Program-made: the position numbers and the translations under genes | Shown here: one piece after another, positions 930 to 12,255 of the stretch | Layout: the number at the start of each line of letters is the position of its first letter | How positions within the stretch are numbered: the first letter of the stretch is position 1 | The notes under the pieces: generated by a model | Databases searched by the model: none | Told to the model about the DNA's origin: nothing | Seen by the model: the letters and a program-made list of their open reading frames with translations, nothing else | IMG/VR virus record: IMGVR_UViG_2706794691_000018 | Source of the DNA: a virus | Taxonomy: Duplodnaviria > Heunggongvirae > Uroviricota > Caudoviricetes | Direction: 5' to 3' (one strand) | DNA: 13,851 bases

Positions 930-1085
930 TTACTTCCTGGATTCGTAGTCTACGAAGACAGCGACCTCCGTCTGGCCGGTTCGGATTCGTACCTCACAGA
1001 GGTCTTTCCTCGTTACCAGTGCCGTCACTATGACGGTTAAACAGATGACGATCAGGGCGATTAACATCGCCTTTTGCTGCTTCAT
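930..1085 (-). CDS. hok: Hok/Gef-family type I toxin, 51 aa (MKQQKAMLIALIVICLTVIVTALVTRKDLCEVRIRTGQTEVAVFVDYESRK)
   Basis: Strong resemblance to HokD/RelF and Gef as I recall them (single TM helix, LTRKDLCE, TEVAVF motif); AAGGAGAAG Shine-Dalgarno immediately upstream of ATG at 1085. The longer track ORF 930..1142 is an in-frame upstream extension. Confidence 0.8.
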   Translation of the reverse strand: MKQQKAMLIALIVICLTVIVTALVTRKDLCEVRIRTGQTEVAVFVDYESRK

Positions 1086-1291
1086 AGCCTGCTTCTCCTT
1101 GCCTTTCGGCATGTAAGAGGCTAACCTACATGTGCAAAGCATGAAATTGGCCTCAGATTAATGTTAAGCGTCTTGCCGGACGCGTAATGTTAACTGGGGC
1201 TTTTCTCTATCTGCCTTTTGGTGTTCATGCCTGAAGCAGATAGCCTCAAGCACCCGCAGTCATTCTACTTACCTCGCCAATATGAAATCAA
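1086..1291 (-). promoter_or_regulatory. hok mRNA leader with putative hok promoter (-35 TTGATT, 18-bp spacer, -10 TAGAAT, reverse complement of 1262-1291); region expected to carry mok start and antisense sok
   Basis: Promoter hexamers seen on the minus strand. Candidate antisense promoter on the plus strand is TTGCCT (1099-1104), 17-bp spacer, TAACCT (1122-1127). Inverted repeat CTATCTGC (1207-1214) with GCAGATAG (1236-1243) fits a structured leader. Confidence 0.35.
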
Positions 1292-2560: not shown

Positions 2561-3252
2561 TCACAGTATCGCCTCCTGAAAATTACCCTGATAGAAAGCC
2601 AGTACACGCTGCATAGCTTCGCTCTTCCGGCACTCGCGACAGATTATATTCAGGCGCCTGTCGTAGCGGCGTATTTCTCCGTCAGGTAATGACCAGATAA
2701 GGTCCGGATCAACAACAACCGGTTTCCTCACCTTTACTCTCGAGAGTTTTTTGCGGGCGCTTTGCCAGTCCTTGCGAGCCTGTTCAGACGGGAATAAGCC
2801 GTAGCCAGAATTATATACATCACCACTTGCGACCAGTTCTATGCATAAGCGACCGACAGACGCACGACTGATACCTGTTTCATCTGACAACTGCCGANNN
2901 NNNNNNNNNNNNNNNNNNNNNNNNNNNNNNNNNNNNNNNNNNNNNNNNNNNNNNNNNNNNNNNNNNNNNNNNNNNNNNNNNNNNNNNNNNNNNNNNNNNN
3001 NNNNNNNNNNNNNNNNNNNNNNNNNNNNNNNNNNNNNNNNNNNNNNNNNNNNNNNNNNNNNNNNNNNNNNNNNNNNNNNNNNNNNNNNNNNNNNNNNNNN
3101 NNNNNNNNNNNNNNNNNNNNNNNNNNNNNNNNNNNNNNNNNNNNNNNCCATAGTTCGTTCAGCACTTCTTCACGACTGATATCAAGTCGCGCAGCAAGTT
3201 CTATGGATGTGGCTTTTCCCATTGCTTTCAGTGCGTCAAAAACAGTCTCCAT
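2561..3252 (-). CDS. phage HTH DNA-binding protein at the position of ydaW; interrupted by an N-run, full length unknown
   Basis: N-terminal part ([31 protein letters not shown]) starts at ATG 3252 with GGGAGGAAA upstream and overlaps the ydaV 3' end. C-terminal part (…[23 protein letters not shown]…) ends at 2561. The two parts are in different frames across the gap. Confidence 0.45.
2898..3147. other. masked or unresolved sequence (250 N)
   Basis: Run of N in the supplied sequence. Confidence 1.
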
Positions 3253-4027: not shown

Positions 4028-4855
4028 TTACCCCCTGAAGCCTGGCGGGATCGNNNNNNNNNNNNNNNNNNNNNNNNNNNNNNNNNNNNNNNNNNNNNNN
4101 NNNNNNNNNNNNNNNNNNNNNNNNNNNNNNNNNNNNNNNNNNNNNNNNNNNNNNNNNNNNNNNNNNNNNNNNNNNNNNNNNNNNNNNNNNNNNNNNNNNN
4201 NNNNNNNNNNNNNNNNNNNNNNNNNNNNNNNNNNNNNNNNNNNNNNNNNNNNNNNNNNNNNNNNNNNNNNNNNNNNNNNNNNNNNNNNNNNNNNNNNNNN
4301 NNNNNNNNNNNNNNNNNNNNNNNNNNNNNNNNNNNNNTCCAGAGGGTCAAACTTTTTGACACCTCGATTCCCCCGGGGGGGATTTAGGGGGGGATCTGTT
4401 TTTAGATCTTTATCTGTATCTTTATTAGTTGCCTTTGTGTTGACATCATGTTCAAACACCACTTCAACATCTGTTTGAACACCTGTTAAATTTCTCTCTT
4501 GTTTTGTTTGAACATCTGCTTCCTTTCTGCTTCTTCTGGCCTGAACAGATGCTTTTCCTGCGGCTGATTTTTTGGTTAATTTTTCCCTGACTGATGCCAG
4601 ATCTTCCTCAATCCGAAGATGCACCCATTCCTCGCCGTTATCGCAAAAAAACTCCTGCAAGGATGGTTCAACATCAGCCCATCGCTCGTTAGTCAGACGG
4701 GCAATTTTTGCCAGCCTGTTTTTAGGTATTGGCTTTCCTGTTTGCCAGTAATTGAACATCAGCAACAAATACGCACCATGCTCCTCTGCTGACAAATGCA
4801 TGGTGTCAGCCAGGTAATCAGCTATGTACAGTTGCATGTATGGTAATGCGGCCAT
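4028..4855 (-). CDS. ydaU: phage replication initiator-like protein (DUF1376-like N-terminus); interrupted by an N-run
   Basis: N-terminus MAALPYMQLYIADYLADTMHLSAEEHGAYLLLMFNYWQTGKP; position between ydaT and the DnaC-like gene. Start is one of ATG 4906, 4855 or 4837; the 3' end lies near 4028 but its frame cannot be verified across the gap. Confidence 0.6.
   Translation of the reverse strand: MAALPYMQLYIADYLADTMHLSAEEHGAYLLLMFNYWQTGKPIPKNRLAKIARLTNERWADVEPSLQEFFCDNGEEWVHLRIEEDLASVREKLTKKSAAGKASVQARRSRKEADVQTKQERNLTGVQTDVEVVFEHDVNTKATNKDTDKDLKTDPPLNPPRGNRGVKKFDPLXXXXXXXXXXXXXXXXXXXXXXXXXXXXXXXXXXXXXXXXXXXXXXXXXXXXXXXXXXXXXXXXXXXXXXXXXXXXXXXXXXXXXXXXXXXXXXXXIPPGFRG
4054..4337. other. masked or unresolved sequence (284 N)
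   Basis: Run of N in the supplied sequence. Confidence 1.
4449..4514. repeat. iteron-like repeats TGTT(C/T)(A/G)AACA, three copies, inside the initiator gene (candidate replication origin)
   Basis: TGTTCAAACA at 4449-4458, TGTTTGAACA at 4472-4481 and 4505-4514, with AACATCTG repeated at 4465-4472 and 4511-4518; preceded by two G7 tracts (4375-4381, 4387-4393) and an AT-rich stretch. Confidence 0.35.
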
Positions 4856-4918
4856 AATTGCCCCGTATGATGCTGCCCGGTGGCTTAGAATAAGCACAAA
4901 CAGCATGGAAACTTTTGC

Positions 4919-5341
4919 TTAATGAACAATGACAGAATCGTCGGAAGACCCGCCGCCGCTGAAATGCGCTTTCCGGTAAACGGCTTGGACTGCATCATCA
5001 TGCGCATCAATTGCCGTACTTAACGCTTCCTGCGCCGCCAGTAATGCACGGCGTTCCAGGGTATCGAAGATGCAGAGTCGGTGACGCAGCTCGCGCGGAA
5101 GGATTGCCAGAATTGCTGGGATCAGCTTCTGAATTTTTTCTCTTTGCGTTTTCGTTTCACCTTTCAACCAACGGTGATAGATATTCTGCTGATTATTCCA
5201 GTCCTTGCCTGGTACCAGGGGCAATTCGCCGCCCCCCTGGCGCAGATATTCTTCAGTAATGGCATTGGCTACCCATGCCTGCCCTTTTTCGGCTGCCAGG
5301 GCTAACAACACTGACTCGATGTGCTCATGCTTGATTTTCAT
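4919..5341 (-). CDS. ydaT: Rac prophage YdaT-like protein (putative toxin / cell-division inhibitor), 140 aa
   Basis: Sequence MKIKHEHIESVLLALAAEKGQAW... matches YdaT as I recall it; its start overlaps the ydaS stop as ATGA (5338-5341). Confidence 0.8.
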   Translation of the reverse strand: MKIKHEHIESVLLALAAEKGQAWVANAITEEYLRQGGGELPLVPGKDWNNQQNIYHRWLKGETKTQREKIQKLIPAILAILPRELRHRLCIFDTLERRALLAAQEALSTAIDAHDDAVQAVYRKAHFSGGGSSDDSVIVH

Positions 5342-5592
5342 GAATCAACTCCCATCAGCTTTTTCGTAGTAGTTTTATTTCTGCCAATAGTTAAAATTAC
5401 ATCAGCAGAAAATAATCCGTTTGATGCATGAGCGATTTTTTCAGCGTAATTTGTTTCGCCGGTATATTCTGTGCGAGGCAATTTTCCGTTATCCATCCAT
5501 TTGTAGATTGCTCTTTGGCTGACACCACAAACGTCGGCCACAACAGAAACGCGAACAGTTTTGATTACATCTTCAAGTGTTTTCTGGTTCAT
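5338..5592 (-). CDS. ydaS: Cro-like HTH regulator, 84 aa from the preferred start
   Basis: HTH segment VADVCGVSQRAIYKWMDNGKLP; ATG at 5592 preceded by GAGGGTGAT; divergent from the repressor gene. Confidence 0.65.
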   Translation of the reverse strand: MNQKTLEDVIKTVRVSVVADVCGVSQRAIYKWMDNGKLPRTEYTGETNYAEKIAHASNGLFSADVILTIGRNKTTTKKLMGVDS

Positions 5593-5653
5593 ATCACCCT
5601 CACAATGTGAACTTTGAGTACATGCTATAACAGAACTGACAGTACATTCAAGA
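5593..5653. promoter_or_regulatory. divergent promoter/operator region between the Cro-like and CI-like genes
   Basis: 61-bp intergenic region with direct repeats GAACTttgAGTACAT (5609-5623) and GAACTgacAGTACAT (5633-5647) and the palindrome CACAATGTG (5601-5609). Confidence 0.45.
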
Positions 5654-6091
5654 GTGAATATCATTGAACTTATGGTTCATGAAGATAAAGCGCGTAAAGA
5701 GTTCGCCAGTAGGCTTGCGCTAGCCTGTGAAAACGCTGGTTATGAACAACATGGAAGGCAGGCAGAAATTGCCCGTCGAATGAAATTAACACCAAAAGCG
5801 GTTAGCAAATGGTTTAATGGCGAAACAATTCCTCGCCGAGAGAAATTAAGGGAATTAGCAACACTCATTGGAACAACACCAACCTATCTTTTGGGAGAGG
5901 ATACAGAAGAAAGTGGACAGGTACGTTTCTATCAGGAGTTAAATCCAAGACAAAAAATCATCATTGACCTTCTGGACGAGCTCCCTGACAGTGAGACAGA
6001 TGAACTTTTAAAAACTCTTGAGGAGAAAAAACAGAAGTACAATGCAATTTACGAAGAGCTAGCACGAAAGAAAAAACAAAAAGCCTCTTAA
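5654..6091 (+). CDS. racR: CI-like prophage repressor (XRE-family HTH), 145 aa from GTG 5654 or 139 aa from ATG 5672
   Basis: HTH QAEIARRMKLTPKAVSKWFNGE with a C-terminal acidic/coiled region; divergent from ydaS at the Rac immunity position. Symbol assigned by synteny, not exact sequence recall. Confidence 0.65.
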   Translation: MNIIELMVHEDKARKEFASRLALACENAGYEQHGRQAEIARRMKLTPKAVSKWFNGETIPRREKLRELATLIGTTPTYLLGEDTEESGQVRFYQELNPRQKIIIDLLDELPDSETDELLKTLEEKKQKYNAIYEELARKKKQKAS

Positions 6092-6154
6092 ACCAGCATA
6101 AATCCGGTAGCGTCCCCCTCCGGGTTTGTGCTTCACTTTATCCCATCTCATTTT

Positions 6155-6212
6155 TTTACACACAAAATGTACTTATAGTACTTTACATCAATGAACACAA
6201 AGTACATTATAT
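6155..6212 (+). promoter_or_regulatory. second operator-like cluster with candidate rightward promoter (-35 TTTACA 6182-6187, -10 CATTAT/TTATAT 6205-6212)
   Basis: ATGTACT (6167-6173), AGTACT (6177-6182) and AGTACAT (6201-6207) recur here and share the core of the 5609-5647 repeats; ACACAAA precedes two of them. Confidence 0.3.
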
Positions 6213-6381
6213 ACCTACCAACCCACCCCGCCCCACAGAACGCAGGGCAATACTTCGAGTTACCAGGCAGTGGTCAGGGGTTAAGTAGCCAGCCCGAGGC
6301 GTATGAACATGACGGCAGGGTTCAGATTTTGCAGTGCAGCAGGTTTCAGTTCCGCCACCCGGCGTTAAGGGGAGAGATAAG

Positions 6382-6516
6382 ATGGTGCATTACGAAGTAG
6401 TTCAGTATTTGATGGATTGTTGCGGTATCACTTACAACCAGGCTGTGCAGGCTTTACGCAGCAACGACTGGGATCTCTGGCAGGCAGAAGTCGCTATACA
6501 CAGCAACAAGATGTGA
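6382..6516 (+). CDS. ydaG: small Rac prophage protein YdaG-like, 44 aa (MVHYEVVQYLMDCCGITYNQAVQ...)
   Basis: ATG 6382 preceded by AAGGGGAGAG; length and sequence match my memory of YdaG. Confidence 0.6.
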   Translation: MVHYEVVQYLMDCCGITYNQAVQALRSNDWDLWQAEVAIHSNKM

Positions 6517-6526
6517 GATTCGCAAA

Positions 6527-6682
6527 ATGCAAAAAATCGACCTCGGCAACAACGAATCCCTGGTGTGCGGCGTGTTCCCCAACCAGGATGGAACGTTCAC
6601 TGCCATGACGTATACCAAAAGCAAAACATTTAAAACCGAAACTGGTGCGCGCCGATGGTTGGAGAAGCACACAGTAAGCTAA
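6527..6682 (+). CDS. ydaF: small Rac prophage protein YdaF-like, 51 aa (MQKIDLGNNESLVCGVFPNQDG...)
   Basis: Hand-translated ORF below the track's length cut-off; 51 aa matches YdaF length and position; 3' end overlaps sieB by 4 nt. Confidence 0.55.
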   Translation: MQKIDLGNNESLVCGVFPNQDGTFTAMTYTKSKTFKTETGARRWLEKHTVS

Positions 6683-7167
6683 CGATTAAAACGTCTACTC
6701 CTGCTGTTCCAGAATAACTTCATAAAATGGGAGTATTTTTCGGTGACGAGATAATAAGAACAGTTTGCGCTATCACTCTGATGTTGAATGATGCCCTTCC
6801 GTTCTAATTTTTTCATAACCGGGTTACGGCAAGGAGAAGTGATAATAAGATTTCCTGTTTTAAGGAAATCTTTAAATACAGCGATTTCTTTCTCAGATAA
6901 ACGAAGCAATACTCGTTGCTCTGGTAGTAATGAATAATGCTTTTGAATATGTGCTCGCAATCTTGAGAAGGAAATGGCGACCACGAAAGAAAAGGCAAAA
7001 ACGATAATCTGAAAGAGCCAAGGTATTTCAGTATAAGCATTGAATGCGACAGTAAACTCTTTCGGTATCAGCCAGAGAGTGAGACCAAAAATGATAATCG
7101 TATACATAAGTATTTCGAGTGGCTCGTTAGCAAAAAGTTTCAACAATGGAGTAAATACATCCAACAT
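6679..7167 (-). CDS. sieB: superinfection exclusion protein B, 162 aa from MLDVFTPLLKLF
   Basis: Membrane protein with hydrophobic N-terminal half; sequence and length match Rac SieB as recalled. The track ORF 6679..7488 continues upstream into the N-run and is not supported. Confidence 0.75.
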   Translation of the reverse strand: MLDVFTPLLKLFANEPLEILMYTIIIFGLTLWLIPKEFTVAFNAYTEIPWLFQIIVFAFSFVVAISFSRLRAHIQKHYSLLPEQRVLLRLSEKEIAVFKDFLKTGNLIITSPCRNPVMKKLERKGIIQHQSDSANCSYYLVTEKYSHFMKLFWNSRSRRFNR

Positions 7168-7225: not shown

Positions 7226-7475
7226 NNNNNNNNNNNNNNNNNNNNNNNNNNNNNNNNNNNNNNNNNNNNNNNNNNNNNNNNNNNNNNNNNNNNNNNNNNN
7301 NNNNNNNNNNNNNNNNNNNNNNNNNNNNNNNNNNNNNNNNNNNNNNNNNNNNNNNNNNNNNNNNNNNNNNNNNNNNNNNNNNNNNNNNNNNNNNNNNNNN
7401 NNNNNNNNNNNNNNNNNNNNNNNNNNNNNNNNNNNNNNNNNNNNNNNNNNNNNNNNNNNNNNNNNNNNNNNNNNN
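7226..7475. other. masked or unresolved sequence (250 N) between sieB and kilR
   Basis: Run of N in the supplied sequence. Confidence 1.
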
Positions 7476-11060: not shown

Positions 11061-11905
11061 GCAACCACCAATCGCAAAAGCCGATCTGCAAAAAACTCAG
11101 GGAAACCGTGCACCAGCAGCAATTAAAAATAACGACGTGATTAGTTTTATTAACCAGCCATCAATGAAAGAGCAACTGGCAGCAGCTCTTCCACGCCATA
11201 TGACGGCTGAACGTATGATCCGTATCGCCACCACAGAAATTCGTAAAGTTCCGGCGTTAGGAAACTGTGACACTATGAGTTTTGTCAGTGCAATCGTACA
11301 GTGTTCACAGCTCGGACTTGAGCCCGGTAGCGCCCTCGGTCATGCATATTTACTGCCTTTTGGTAATAAAAACGAAAAGAGCGGTAAAAAAAACGTTCAG
11401 CTAATCATTGGCNNNNNNNNNNNNNNNNNNNNNNNNNNNNNNNNNNNNNNNNNNNNNNNNNNNNNNNNNNNNNNNNNNNNNNNNNNNNNNNNNNNNNNNN
11501 NNNNNNNNNNNNNNNNNNNNNNNNNNNNNNNNNNNNNNNNNNNNNNNNNNNNNNNNNNNNNNNNNNNNNNNNNNNNNNNNNNNNNNNNNNNNNNNNNNNN
11601 NNNNNNNNNNNNNNNNNNNNNNNNNNNNNNNNNNNNNNNNNNNNNNNNNNNNNNNNNNNNNNNNNNNNNNNNNNNNNNNNNNNNNNNNNNNNNNNNNNNN
11701 NNCTGGTAATAACGGGCCGTGGGTAACTCACTGGGAAGAAATGGCAAAGAAAACGGCTATTCGTCGCCTGTTCAAATATCTGCCCGTATCAATTGAGATC
11801 CAGCGTGCAGTATCAATGGATGAAAAGGAACCACTGACAATCGATCCTGCAGATTCCTCTGTATTAACCGGGGAATACAGTGTAATCGATAATTCAGAGG
11901 AATAA
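11053..11905 (+). CDS. recT: recombinase RecT (single-strand annealing protein); central part masked
   Basis: N-terminal 120 aa ([26 protein letters not shown]...) and C-terminal 66 aa (...[33 protein letters not shown]...SVIDNSEE) match RecT; the two parts are in different frames across the N-run. Confidence 0.8.
11413..11702. other. masked or unresolved sequence (290 N) inside recT
   Basis: Run of N in the supplied sequence. Confidence 1.
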
Positions 11906-12038: not shown

Positions 12039-12255
12039 NNNNNNNNNNNNNNNNNNNNNNNNNNNNNNNNNNNNNNNNNNNNNNNNNNNNNNNNNNNNNN
12101 NNNNNNNNNNNNNNNNNNNNNNNNNNNNNNNNNNNNNNNNNNNNNNNNNNNNNNNNNNNNNNNNNNNNNNNNNNNNNNNNNNNNNNNNNNNNNNNNNNNN
12201 NNNNNNNNNNNNNNNNNNNNNNNNNNNNNNNNNNNNNNNNNNNNNNNNNNNNNNN
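12039..12255. other. masked or unresolved sequence (217 N) covering the ralR 3' end and downstream region
   Basis: Run of N in the supplied sequence. Confidence 1.

Follow-up and report, generated by a model that had tools for sequence, protein, structure and literature searches.

The 13,851 nucleotides of DNA analysed here, which we call the window, represent a lambdoid prophage of the Rac family in Escherichia coli, and we consider it highly probable (roughly 85%, on sequence comparison) that its immunity cassette contains an HK022-type genetic switch, in which dimers of a CI-like repressor would bind five GWAC-N5-GTWC palindromes. Exactly five matches to this pattern are present in the window, all within 600 bp, three of them where the cro-like and cI-like genes diverge (OR) and two downstream of the cI-like gene (OL). 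These sites exist and are statistically exceptional. Genetic switches of this kind are common in phages and well understood, and the present one reveals no new kind of regulation; its only unusual feature is that the CI, a protein of 139 amino acids, is devoid of an S24 domain.

Operators and promoters of the cassette

An earlier note on this DNA had reported repeats on both sides of the repressor gene, namely the direct repeats GAACTTTGAGTACAT at 5609-5623 and GAACTGACAGTACAT at 5633-5647 on one side, and the cores ATGTACT (6167-6173), AGTACT (6177-6182) and AGTACAT (6201-6207) on the other. All of these positions are correct, but the units are imperfect palindromes: the AGTACAT heptamers are pieces of the 13-bp palindrome GWAC-N5-GTWC, the 15-bp form of which is TGWAC-N5-GTWCA. 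The direct-repeat reading was dropped for one of dyad symmetry, as GAAC/GTTC and GTAC are palindromic half-sites and one downstream site (OLa) is a perfect palindrome. Both repeats between cro and cI are real, but a third site (O3, 5666-5678) had been overlooked there; the three downstream cores are correctly placed, but ATGTACT and AGTACT together make up one operator, at 6169-6181, of which each is a half-site. The gap of 61 bp given for cro and cI holds only with a GTG start at 5654, and is 79 bp with the ATG at 5672. The GTG was rejected as the cI start on the conservation of the MVHE N-terminus, on the RefSeq start (ATG 5672) and on the position of the promoter. The features of the cassette are as follows, in window positions.

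5338 to 5592, minus strand: cro-like gene, 84 aa, homologue of HK022 Cro
5609 to 5621 (15-bp form 5608 to 5622): O1 operator, GAACTTTGAGTAC, 18.4 bits, just downstream of the PR -10
5624 to 5629, minus strand: inferred PR -10, TATAGC with TGT before it, between O1 and O2, at the offset of the HK022 pR -10 from O1
5633 to 5645: O2 operator, GAACTGACAGTAC, 17.2 bits, within the PR spacer
5636 to 5664, plus strand: PRM-like promoter CTGACA-17-TATCAT, from the promoter scan, 10/12 matches
5646 to 5651, minus strand: inferred PR -35, TTGAAT, at the same offset as the annotated HK022 pR -35
5666 to 5678: O3 operator, GAACTTATGGTTC, 22.2 bits, the top matrix score of the window, including the cI start codon
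5672 to 6091, plus strand: cI-like repressor gene, 139 aa, with Xre/CI-type HTH, disordered linker and C-terminal helical hairpin
6095 to 6132, plus strand: stem-loop after the cI stop, -19.4 kcal/mol, z = -5.5
6169 to 6181: OLa operator, GTACTTATAGTAC, 21.4 bits, perfect palindrome, abutting the PL -35
6182 to 6210, plus strand: PL-like promoter TTTACA-17-CATTAT, from the promoter scan, -35 at 6182-6187 and -10 at 6205-6210
6193 to 6205: OLb operator, GAACACAAAGTAC, 17.2 bits, between the PL -35 and -10

From centre to centre, the OR sites are 24 and 33 bp apart and the OL sites 24 bp. On the cro side, TATAGC is a poor -10 hexamer, which the consensus promoter scan did not call, and the spacer between the putative PR -35 and -10 is 16 nt long and filled by O2. 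With O1 and O2 apparently bracketing the PR -10 and O2 occupying the PR spacer, binding at both sites would exclude RNA polymerase and silence cro-ydaT-ydaU-ydaV. On the cI side, the centre of O2, CTGACA, is at the same time the -35 of the cI promoter, which accounts for the invariance of the O2 spacer bases CTGA across the family, and a TATAAT-like hexamer at the position of the PRM -10 is conserved across loci. Transcription of cI would start at or next to the ATG and yield a leaderless mRNA, as has been reported for cI transcripts of related switches (PMC8630535, PMC9638921). O3 would lie over the start point of this apparently leaderless mRNA and subject cI to autoregulation; since O3 covers the cI start site, autorepression is expected at high repressor levels. 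O2 lies directly over the cI promoter -35, centred near -33. Judged from this arrangement, lambda-style activation of PRM is not to be assumed, and autorepression appears equally plausible.

Beyond cI, the PL-like promoter faces ydaG-ydaF-kilR-recET, and OLb fills its spacer and touches its -10. Two proposals of the earlier note, that the second set of sites overlaps a rightward promoter and that it serves the ydaG-ydaF side, agree with the promoter found by the scan and with the genes that it faces, and the latter also with K-12 Rac, where the same ydaG-ydaF-kilR-recET operon rises 40-70-fold or more upon RacR depletion (PMC6765115; bioRxiv 10.64898/2026.09.06.749655). Occupancy of OLa and OLb would be predicted to silence these genes. 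The stem-loop at 6095-6132 may terminate transcription of cI, although its U tract is weak and it was not called by the terminator scan. An Rfam E-value scan of the entire window, made to see whether a structured RNA (put-like or other) follows PL, returned only sok, at 1080-1255.

Prophage context and exchange of the cassette

Several complete E. coli genomes show 99.9% identity to window positions 5300-6700, which comprise the cassette and part of its flanks, and at least 80% of this interval is present in 645 of 5426 complete E. coli genomes (~12%). Five stretches of the window are N-masked. According to the RefSeq annotation of one such genome, the minus strand carries ydaV, ydaU, ydaT and an HTH gene (cro-like), and the plus strand an HTH gene (cI-like), a gene for a small hypothetical protein in the position of K-12 ydaG, and then ydaF, kilR, ydaE, racC, recE, recT, ralR, xisR and intR, with sieB between ydaF and kilR on the opposite strand.

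The window is ~99% identical to K-12 Rac at 4338-5347 and again from 6216 on, and only 5348-6215 is replaced. This segment begins at the end of cro, reaches as far as the PL -10 and contains cro, OR, cI and OL/PL. At both equivalent places K-12 has palindromes of the RacR consensus, TAGGC-N3-GCCTA: four between racR and ydaS, the last of them over the racR ATG, and, beyond the 3' end of racR, a further two that surround TTGACA-17-TATAGT at a spacing of 25 bp. Therefore, both operator sets change their specificity with the repressor. Published work on K-12 describes footprints of the intergenic racR-ydaS sites and a leaderless racR promoter (PMC9638921, PMC11879457). The two prophages are alike in their backbone, in having several palindromes between the divergent repressor and cro-like genes with the last over the repressor ATG, in the leaderless repressor mRNA, predicted in the case of the window (PMC9638921), and in a second pair of palindromes downstream of the repressor and before ydaG, but the intergenic sites number four in K-12 and three in the window. 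The K-12 RacR/YdaS immunity type was nevertheless rejected for the window: the likeness of CI to RacR is confined to an HTH stretch of 33 aa (12/33 identical), and the RacR operator WTAGGC-N3-GCCTAW is absent from the window, where a single match with two mismatches, below chance expectation, was found (K-12: six matches).

The cassette also occurs, with 96% identity, in a different phage backbone, that of Tritos. This bears on the possibility that the operators are genuine but belong to a relic switch, the repressor being inactive or unexpressed in a defective Rac-type prophage. The K-12-Rac-like flanks, the annotation of K-12 Rac as a cryptic prophage and the weakness of the PR -10 would fit such a relic; however, cI and cro are intact, and Tritos, a phage of AIEC LF82, is active: it forms plaques, and its lysogen transcribes CI at a level 24-fold over background (PMC9928086). 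Moreover, K-12 Rac still needs its equivalent repressor to silence the toxic ydaS/ydaT (PMC5700373, PMC9638921). We therefore regard a relic as unlikely and a functional HK022-type switch as the preferred reading.

The CI-like and Cro-like proteins and the homology with HK022

When the phage collection was searched by tblastn with the N-terminal domain of CI, two informative matches were obtained, Tritos, which is identical over the domain, and HK022 cI (58%, 72 aa). By BLASTP, CI has 47% identity with HK022 CI over 99 aa (E 6e-32), and the Cro-like protein has 62% identity with HK022 Cro over 73 aa (E 6e-33); the latter protein also matches phrog_35 and, weakly, HTH_17. The CI helix reads TPKAVSKWFNGE in the window and TPKAISKWFNGE in HK022, so that one conservative residue differs.

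The homology extends to the sites. The HK022 record (GenBank X16093; locus L046) annotates three 15-bp oR sites at 430-444, 454-468 and 487-501, with cI starting at 494, within the third of them, and with the pR -10 at 446-451 and the pR -35 at 468-473. Its oL sites lie at 1262-1276 and 1286-1300, the pL -35 at 1276-1281 and the pL -10 at 1299-1304. In order, the five HK022 sites are TGAACTTATGGTTCA, GGAACTGATAGTACA, TGAACTTATGGTTCA, TGTACTATTGGTACT and TGAACTTTAAGTACA, and the 15-mer of O3 in the window, TGAACTTATGGTTCA, is identical to both oR1 and oR3. The corresponding positions are set side by side below.

Starts of the 13-bp sites at OR: window 5609, 5633 and 5666; HK022 (L046) 431, 455 and 488
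Starts of the 13-bp sites at OL: window 6169 and 6193; HK022 1263 and 1287
TTTACA: window 6182-6187; HK022 1276-1281

The window and HK022 have in common the TGWAC-N5-GTWCA operator, the 24/33-bp oR spacing, the cI ATG inside oR3, the oL pair 24 bp apart, TTTACA as the pL -35 and the pL -10 at an equal offset. They differ in the OR-OL distance, ~560 bp in the window and ~700 bp in HK022 (PMC8053113), and in the flanking genes, which are Rac-type (ydaT, ydaG, recET) in the window but nun/cII-type in HK022. HK022 possesses a further operator ~300 bp downstream of OR (PMC8053113), and HK022-like loci have an extra site ~267 bp from O1; for counterparts of HK022 OL3 and of this far-right operator (~270-300 bp beyond OR), no sixth site above 6 bits was found in the unmasked window. 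According to PMC8053113, which cites Carlson & Little 1993, HK022 CI binds its operators cooperatively, and OL-OR looping by HK022 CI has been shown experimentally (PMC8053113). For the window, it is by inference that we speak of binding by this CI, of the order in which the sites would be filled, of autoregulation and its sign, of cooperativity from one site to the next and of OR-OL looping across ~560 bp.

The main difference between the two repressors is at the C-terminus, which is a short helical hairpin in the window CI but an S24 LexA-like domain in HK022 CI. Pfam assigned only HTH_3 / HTH families to the 139-aa CI, with no S24 peptidase domain, and the protein, tail included, matches phrog_5736. 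The AlphaFold model (mean pLDDT 82.9, from a shallow alignment of 6 sequences) shows a five-helix HTH at 2-74, a disordered linker at 77-86 and the helical hairpin at 92-138. Comparison of this model with the PDB using Foldseek gave generic Xre-HTH matches, none with E <= 0.001, and SinR-like proteins and small phage repressors had weak scores only; thus, the hairpin is unassignable to a known oligomerisation domain. A sequence search of solved structures with CI gave only a weak match to the P22 C2 HTH.

The CI homologues occur in two forms. The short one, of 138-151 aa, is found in E. coli and Salmonella, and the long one, of ~235-240 aa, in Raoultella and metagenome assemblies, where the same N-terminal domain is fused to an S24 LexA-like peptidase (PF00717). 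On alignment the short form diverges after the IDLLD segment, and the helix TPKAVSKWFNG is invariant across short and long relatives. Because the S24 domain is absent, RecA-stimulated self-cleavage of this CI is not expected. In lambda and HK022, it is through the S24 domain that the repressor binds cooperatively and forms loops. That the window CI, with a C-terminal domain unrelated to S24, is also cooperative and capable of OR-OL looping is a conjecture.

Conservation of the sites across related loci

The sites were followed through 43 non-redundant loci encoding relatives of the repressor HTH domain, which were drawn from the loci of the homologues and from 35 loci obtained by scanning a single genome of each species. 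The O1-O2-O3 triple is present in 37 of the 43, with spacings of 24 and 33 bp in nearly all, and in most triple-bearing loci the cI ATG falls within the O3 spacer. These loci come from Escherichia, Shigella, Salmonella, Klebsiella, Raoultella, Enterobacter and Kluyvera, among others, and also from Brenneria, Pantoea, Providencia, Vibrio, Photobacterium, Haemophilus and Pseudomonas. O3 of the Haemophilus loci precedes the start of the gene instead of overlapping it, and the conservation of O3 is therefore not just coding constraint.

The downstream OL pair, with sites 24-25 bp apart, is present in 29 of the 43 loci. When 28 pairs were aligned, the -35 hexamer (mostly TTTACA or TTGACT) stood directly after the first site, and the -10 overlapped the end of the second. 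The distance from OLa to OLb is 24 bp in the window, in HK022 and in 21 others of these 28 loci, and 25 bp in the remaining 6. The distance from O3 to the OL pair ranges from 503 bp in the window, the shortest seen, up to 3.1 kb elsewhere, as the pair moves outward with a longer repressor or with cargo genes after it, such as, in Salmonella, a HigB-toxin gene and its HTH partner and, in Raoultella, a gene for an AAA ATPase. An OL/PL that lies where the repressor operon ends would be expected to shift outward in just this way. Short and long repressors go with an identical 24-bp operator spacing, so that the geometry of the promoter, and not contacts between proteins, may determine it. The motif tracks the HTH domain across genera, and the HK022 record annotates the same layout of five operators (3 + 2), which supports the earlier note in its view of lambda-like OR and OL sets flanking the repressor.

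It could be argued that the protein recognising the palindromes is not the CI-like repressor but the Cro-like protein or some other factor. Homologues of Cro and CI co-occur in most of the loci, and covariation by itself cannot separate the two; however, three loci (L008, L009 and L015) keep the triple and a CI relative without an HK022-type Cro, so the motif is tied to CI rather than to Cro alone. In addition, the CI helix does not vary within the family, and the HK022 CI is reported to bind the homologous operators (PMC8053113). Binding by another protein in place of CI is accordingly very improbable, and recognition by the CI-like repressor is preferred; the Cro-like protein very probably binds the five palindromes too.

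Every one of the sites overlaps or abuts a promoter hexamer, as would be seen if the conserved blocks were only promoter elements (-35, -10, discriminator) and not operators. On the other hand, the dyad half-sites recur at five places, which differ in promoter context, and stand to either side of the hexamers, and they are more conserved than the hexamers themselves. In terms of information content, calculated from 23 divergent loci, the half-site columns average 1.87 bits, the spacers 1.25 and other intergenic columns 0.79. Moreover, where the repressor is swapped, as in K-12, the palindrome is a different one. Promoter elements alone are thus a very improbable explanation of the blocks, and we continue to read them as operators.

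The statistics point in the same direction. With a weight matrix built from 106 sites of other loci only, the five sites score 17.2-22.2 bits, the sixth-best position in the window 6.0, and the best position in shuffled sequences has a median of 7.3. AGTACAT itself occurs 4 times in the 13.85 kb (both strands), always within 5617-6207, where dinucleotide shuffles expect 0.85 copies. A sample of 100 kb of E. coli host DNA, half of which comes from a strain carrying this prophage, has 10 copies (0.062 per 620 bp), with a maximum of 2 in any 620-bp window and no enrichment in AT-rich windows (<42% GC; mean 0.043), and the Poisson probability of at least 4 copies in one 620-bp window is ~6e-7. The motif enrichment test proposed in the earlier note has thereby been carried out on this sample: the heptamer is not equally frequent in its AT-rich DNA, so an explanation from AT-rich background fails, and the clustering around the repressor, which the note had called unlikely to be random, is far beyond chance. 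A chance pile-up of an AT-rich heptamer in AT-rich intergenic DNA is negligible as an explanation, for although the region has 40% GC and 2 of 200 dinucleotide shuffles of the window reach 4 copies anywhere in it, the host frequencies just given and the occurrence of the motif as a longer palindrome at fixed offsets in 37 of the 43 related loci speak against it.

Comparison with other switches and implications

The layout resembles that of lambda in that the repressor gene is flanked by operator sets on divergent lytic promoters, OR has three sites, cI and PL are read in the same direction, and cI is leaderless, as predicted for the window. The operator sequence is unrelated, however, and the window has two OL sites against three in lambda; O2 lies on the PRM -35 in the window but next to it in lambda, and the window CI is without the S24 domain. 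PaaR2/YdaS of CP-933P in E. coli O157:H7 likewise has a lambdoid OR and OL/PL with a short, leaderless repressor of non-LexA type, and its cro-like gene is followed by a ydaT (CII-like) gene (PMC8630535, PMC9986795), whereas its operators are 18-bp palindromes of the GTTTAGTAA type and the paaA2-parE2 toxin-antitoxin pair forms part of its repressor operon. The switch of the window is modelled more closely by HK022 than by lambda.

The comparison with K-12 Rac means that cro, OR, cI and OL/PL are swapped among Rac-family prophages as a single block with sharp boundaries. Furthermore, the HK022 layout (24 / 33 / 24 bp) is conserved in Enterobacterales, Vibrionaceae, Pasteurellaceae and Pseudomonas, and it holds with S24-type repressors and with short repressors that have no S24. 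The analysis also provides a precise map of operators and promoters for an immunity type found in ~12% of complete E. coli genomes. We can suggest only tentatively, and consider it rather doubtful, that the S24-less CI is still cooperative and loops the DNA by means of an unrelated hairpin, so that the module for oligomerisation and induction has been exchanged and the DNA architecture frozen. If this is true, the Rac-type prophage and Tritos would confer an SOS-insensitive immunity, which would extend to superinfecting phages of the HK022 family.

Boundaries of the immunity cassette

When the window is compared with the Rac prophage of E. coli K-12, identity is about 99% on either side of 5348-6215 and absent inside it; the immunity cassette is a mosaic block with sharp boundaries. 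The right-hand junction lies directly 3' of the PL -10 element, at the predicted transcript start. The 5' leader of about 165 nt from this predicted start to ydaG (6216-6381) is inside the segment about 99% identical to K-12 Rac, and the Rfam scan of the window gave no match there. At the left boundary, a perfect YdaT (CII-like) box, TTGATTTTCATGAATCAA (5331-5348), coincides in position with the edge of the cassette and overlaps both the cro stop and the ydaT start. It was recognized by sequence match to 5'-TTGATT-N6-AATCAA-3', described in PMC9986795 and PMC11879457 as the site through which a reverse, PRE-like promoter is activated.

The following features were also recorded in the window:
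2898-3147, 4054-4337, 7226-7475, 11413-11702 and 12039-12255: sequence masked as N, in five runs
1080-1255, minus strand: Rfam match (RF01794) of 117 bits to sok, the antisense RNA of a hok/sok toxin-antitoxin locus

The runs of N distort the ORF calls, for example making recT look truncated. The sok RNA adjoins an annotated Hok/Gef family gene.

Operators in K-12 Rac and in other phages

Downstream of racR, the repressor gene of K-12 MG1655 Rac (L002), two palindromes of the RacR consensus are present:
L002 4631-4643: RacR-consensus palindrome
L002 4656-4668: RacR-consensus palindrome

These are spaced 25 bp apart and are placed around TTGACA-17-TATAGT, with ydaG downstream. The pair constitutes an OL/PL-like set. 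The RacR operators described in PMC9638921 and PMC11879457 are only those in the racR-ydaS intergenic region, and no mention of ydaG was found in these two papers.

Three comparison loci (L008, L009 and L015, 3880-4010) combine the O1-O2-O3 triple with an S24-type CI gene. Opposite these stands, in place of cro, a Q-like antiterminator gene, followed by lysis and tail-sheath genes; no OL pair was found. These loci look like a different phage architecture that uses the same operator set. Furthermore, the HK022-like loci (L020, L024, L025 and HK022 itself, L046) have an additional perfect site about 267 bp beyond O1, with the sequence GTACTAAAAGTAC in L020, L024 and L025. This is probably the far-right operator that PMC8053113 mentions about 300 bp downstream of OR in HK022. 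No equivalent site is present in the window.

Cargo genes and exchange of the repressor C-terminal domain

Some relatives carry cargo genes in the interval from the repressor gene to OL:
L003/L004 (Salmonella), about 4550-5260: HigB-like toxin gene and HTH partner
L006 (Raoultella), 4808-6250: gene for a 480-aa AAA_15/AAA_21 ATPase

Their placement resembles that of lambda rexAB and of paaA2-parE2 in CP-933P. Moreover, one DNA-binding domain has two C-terminal partners (variants noted in L006, L012-L018 and other loci, and in proteins P0021 and P0034), namely a short helical hairpin in the E. coli and Salmonella prophages, and an S24 LexA-like domain in Raoultella and metagenome proteins, the same fusion as in HK022 CI itself. 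The operators are identical in kind for hairpin-type and S24-type repressors, so the C-terminal domain of the repressor has been exchanged on a constant operator architecture.
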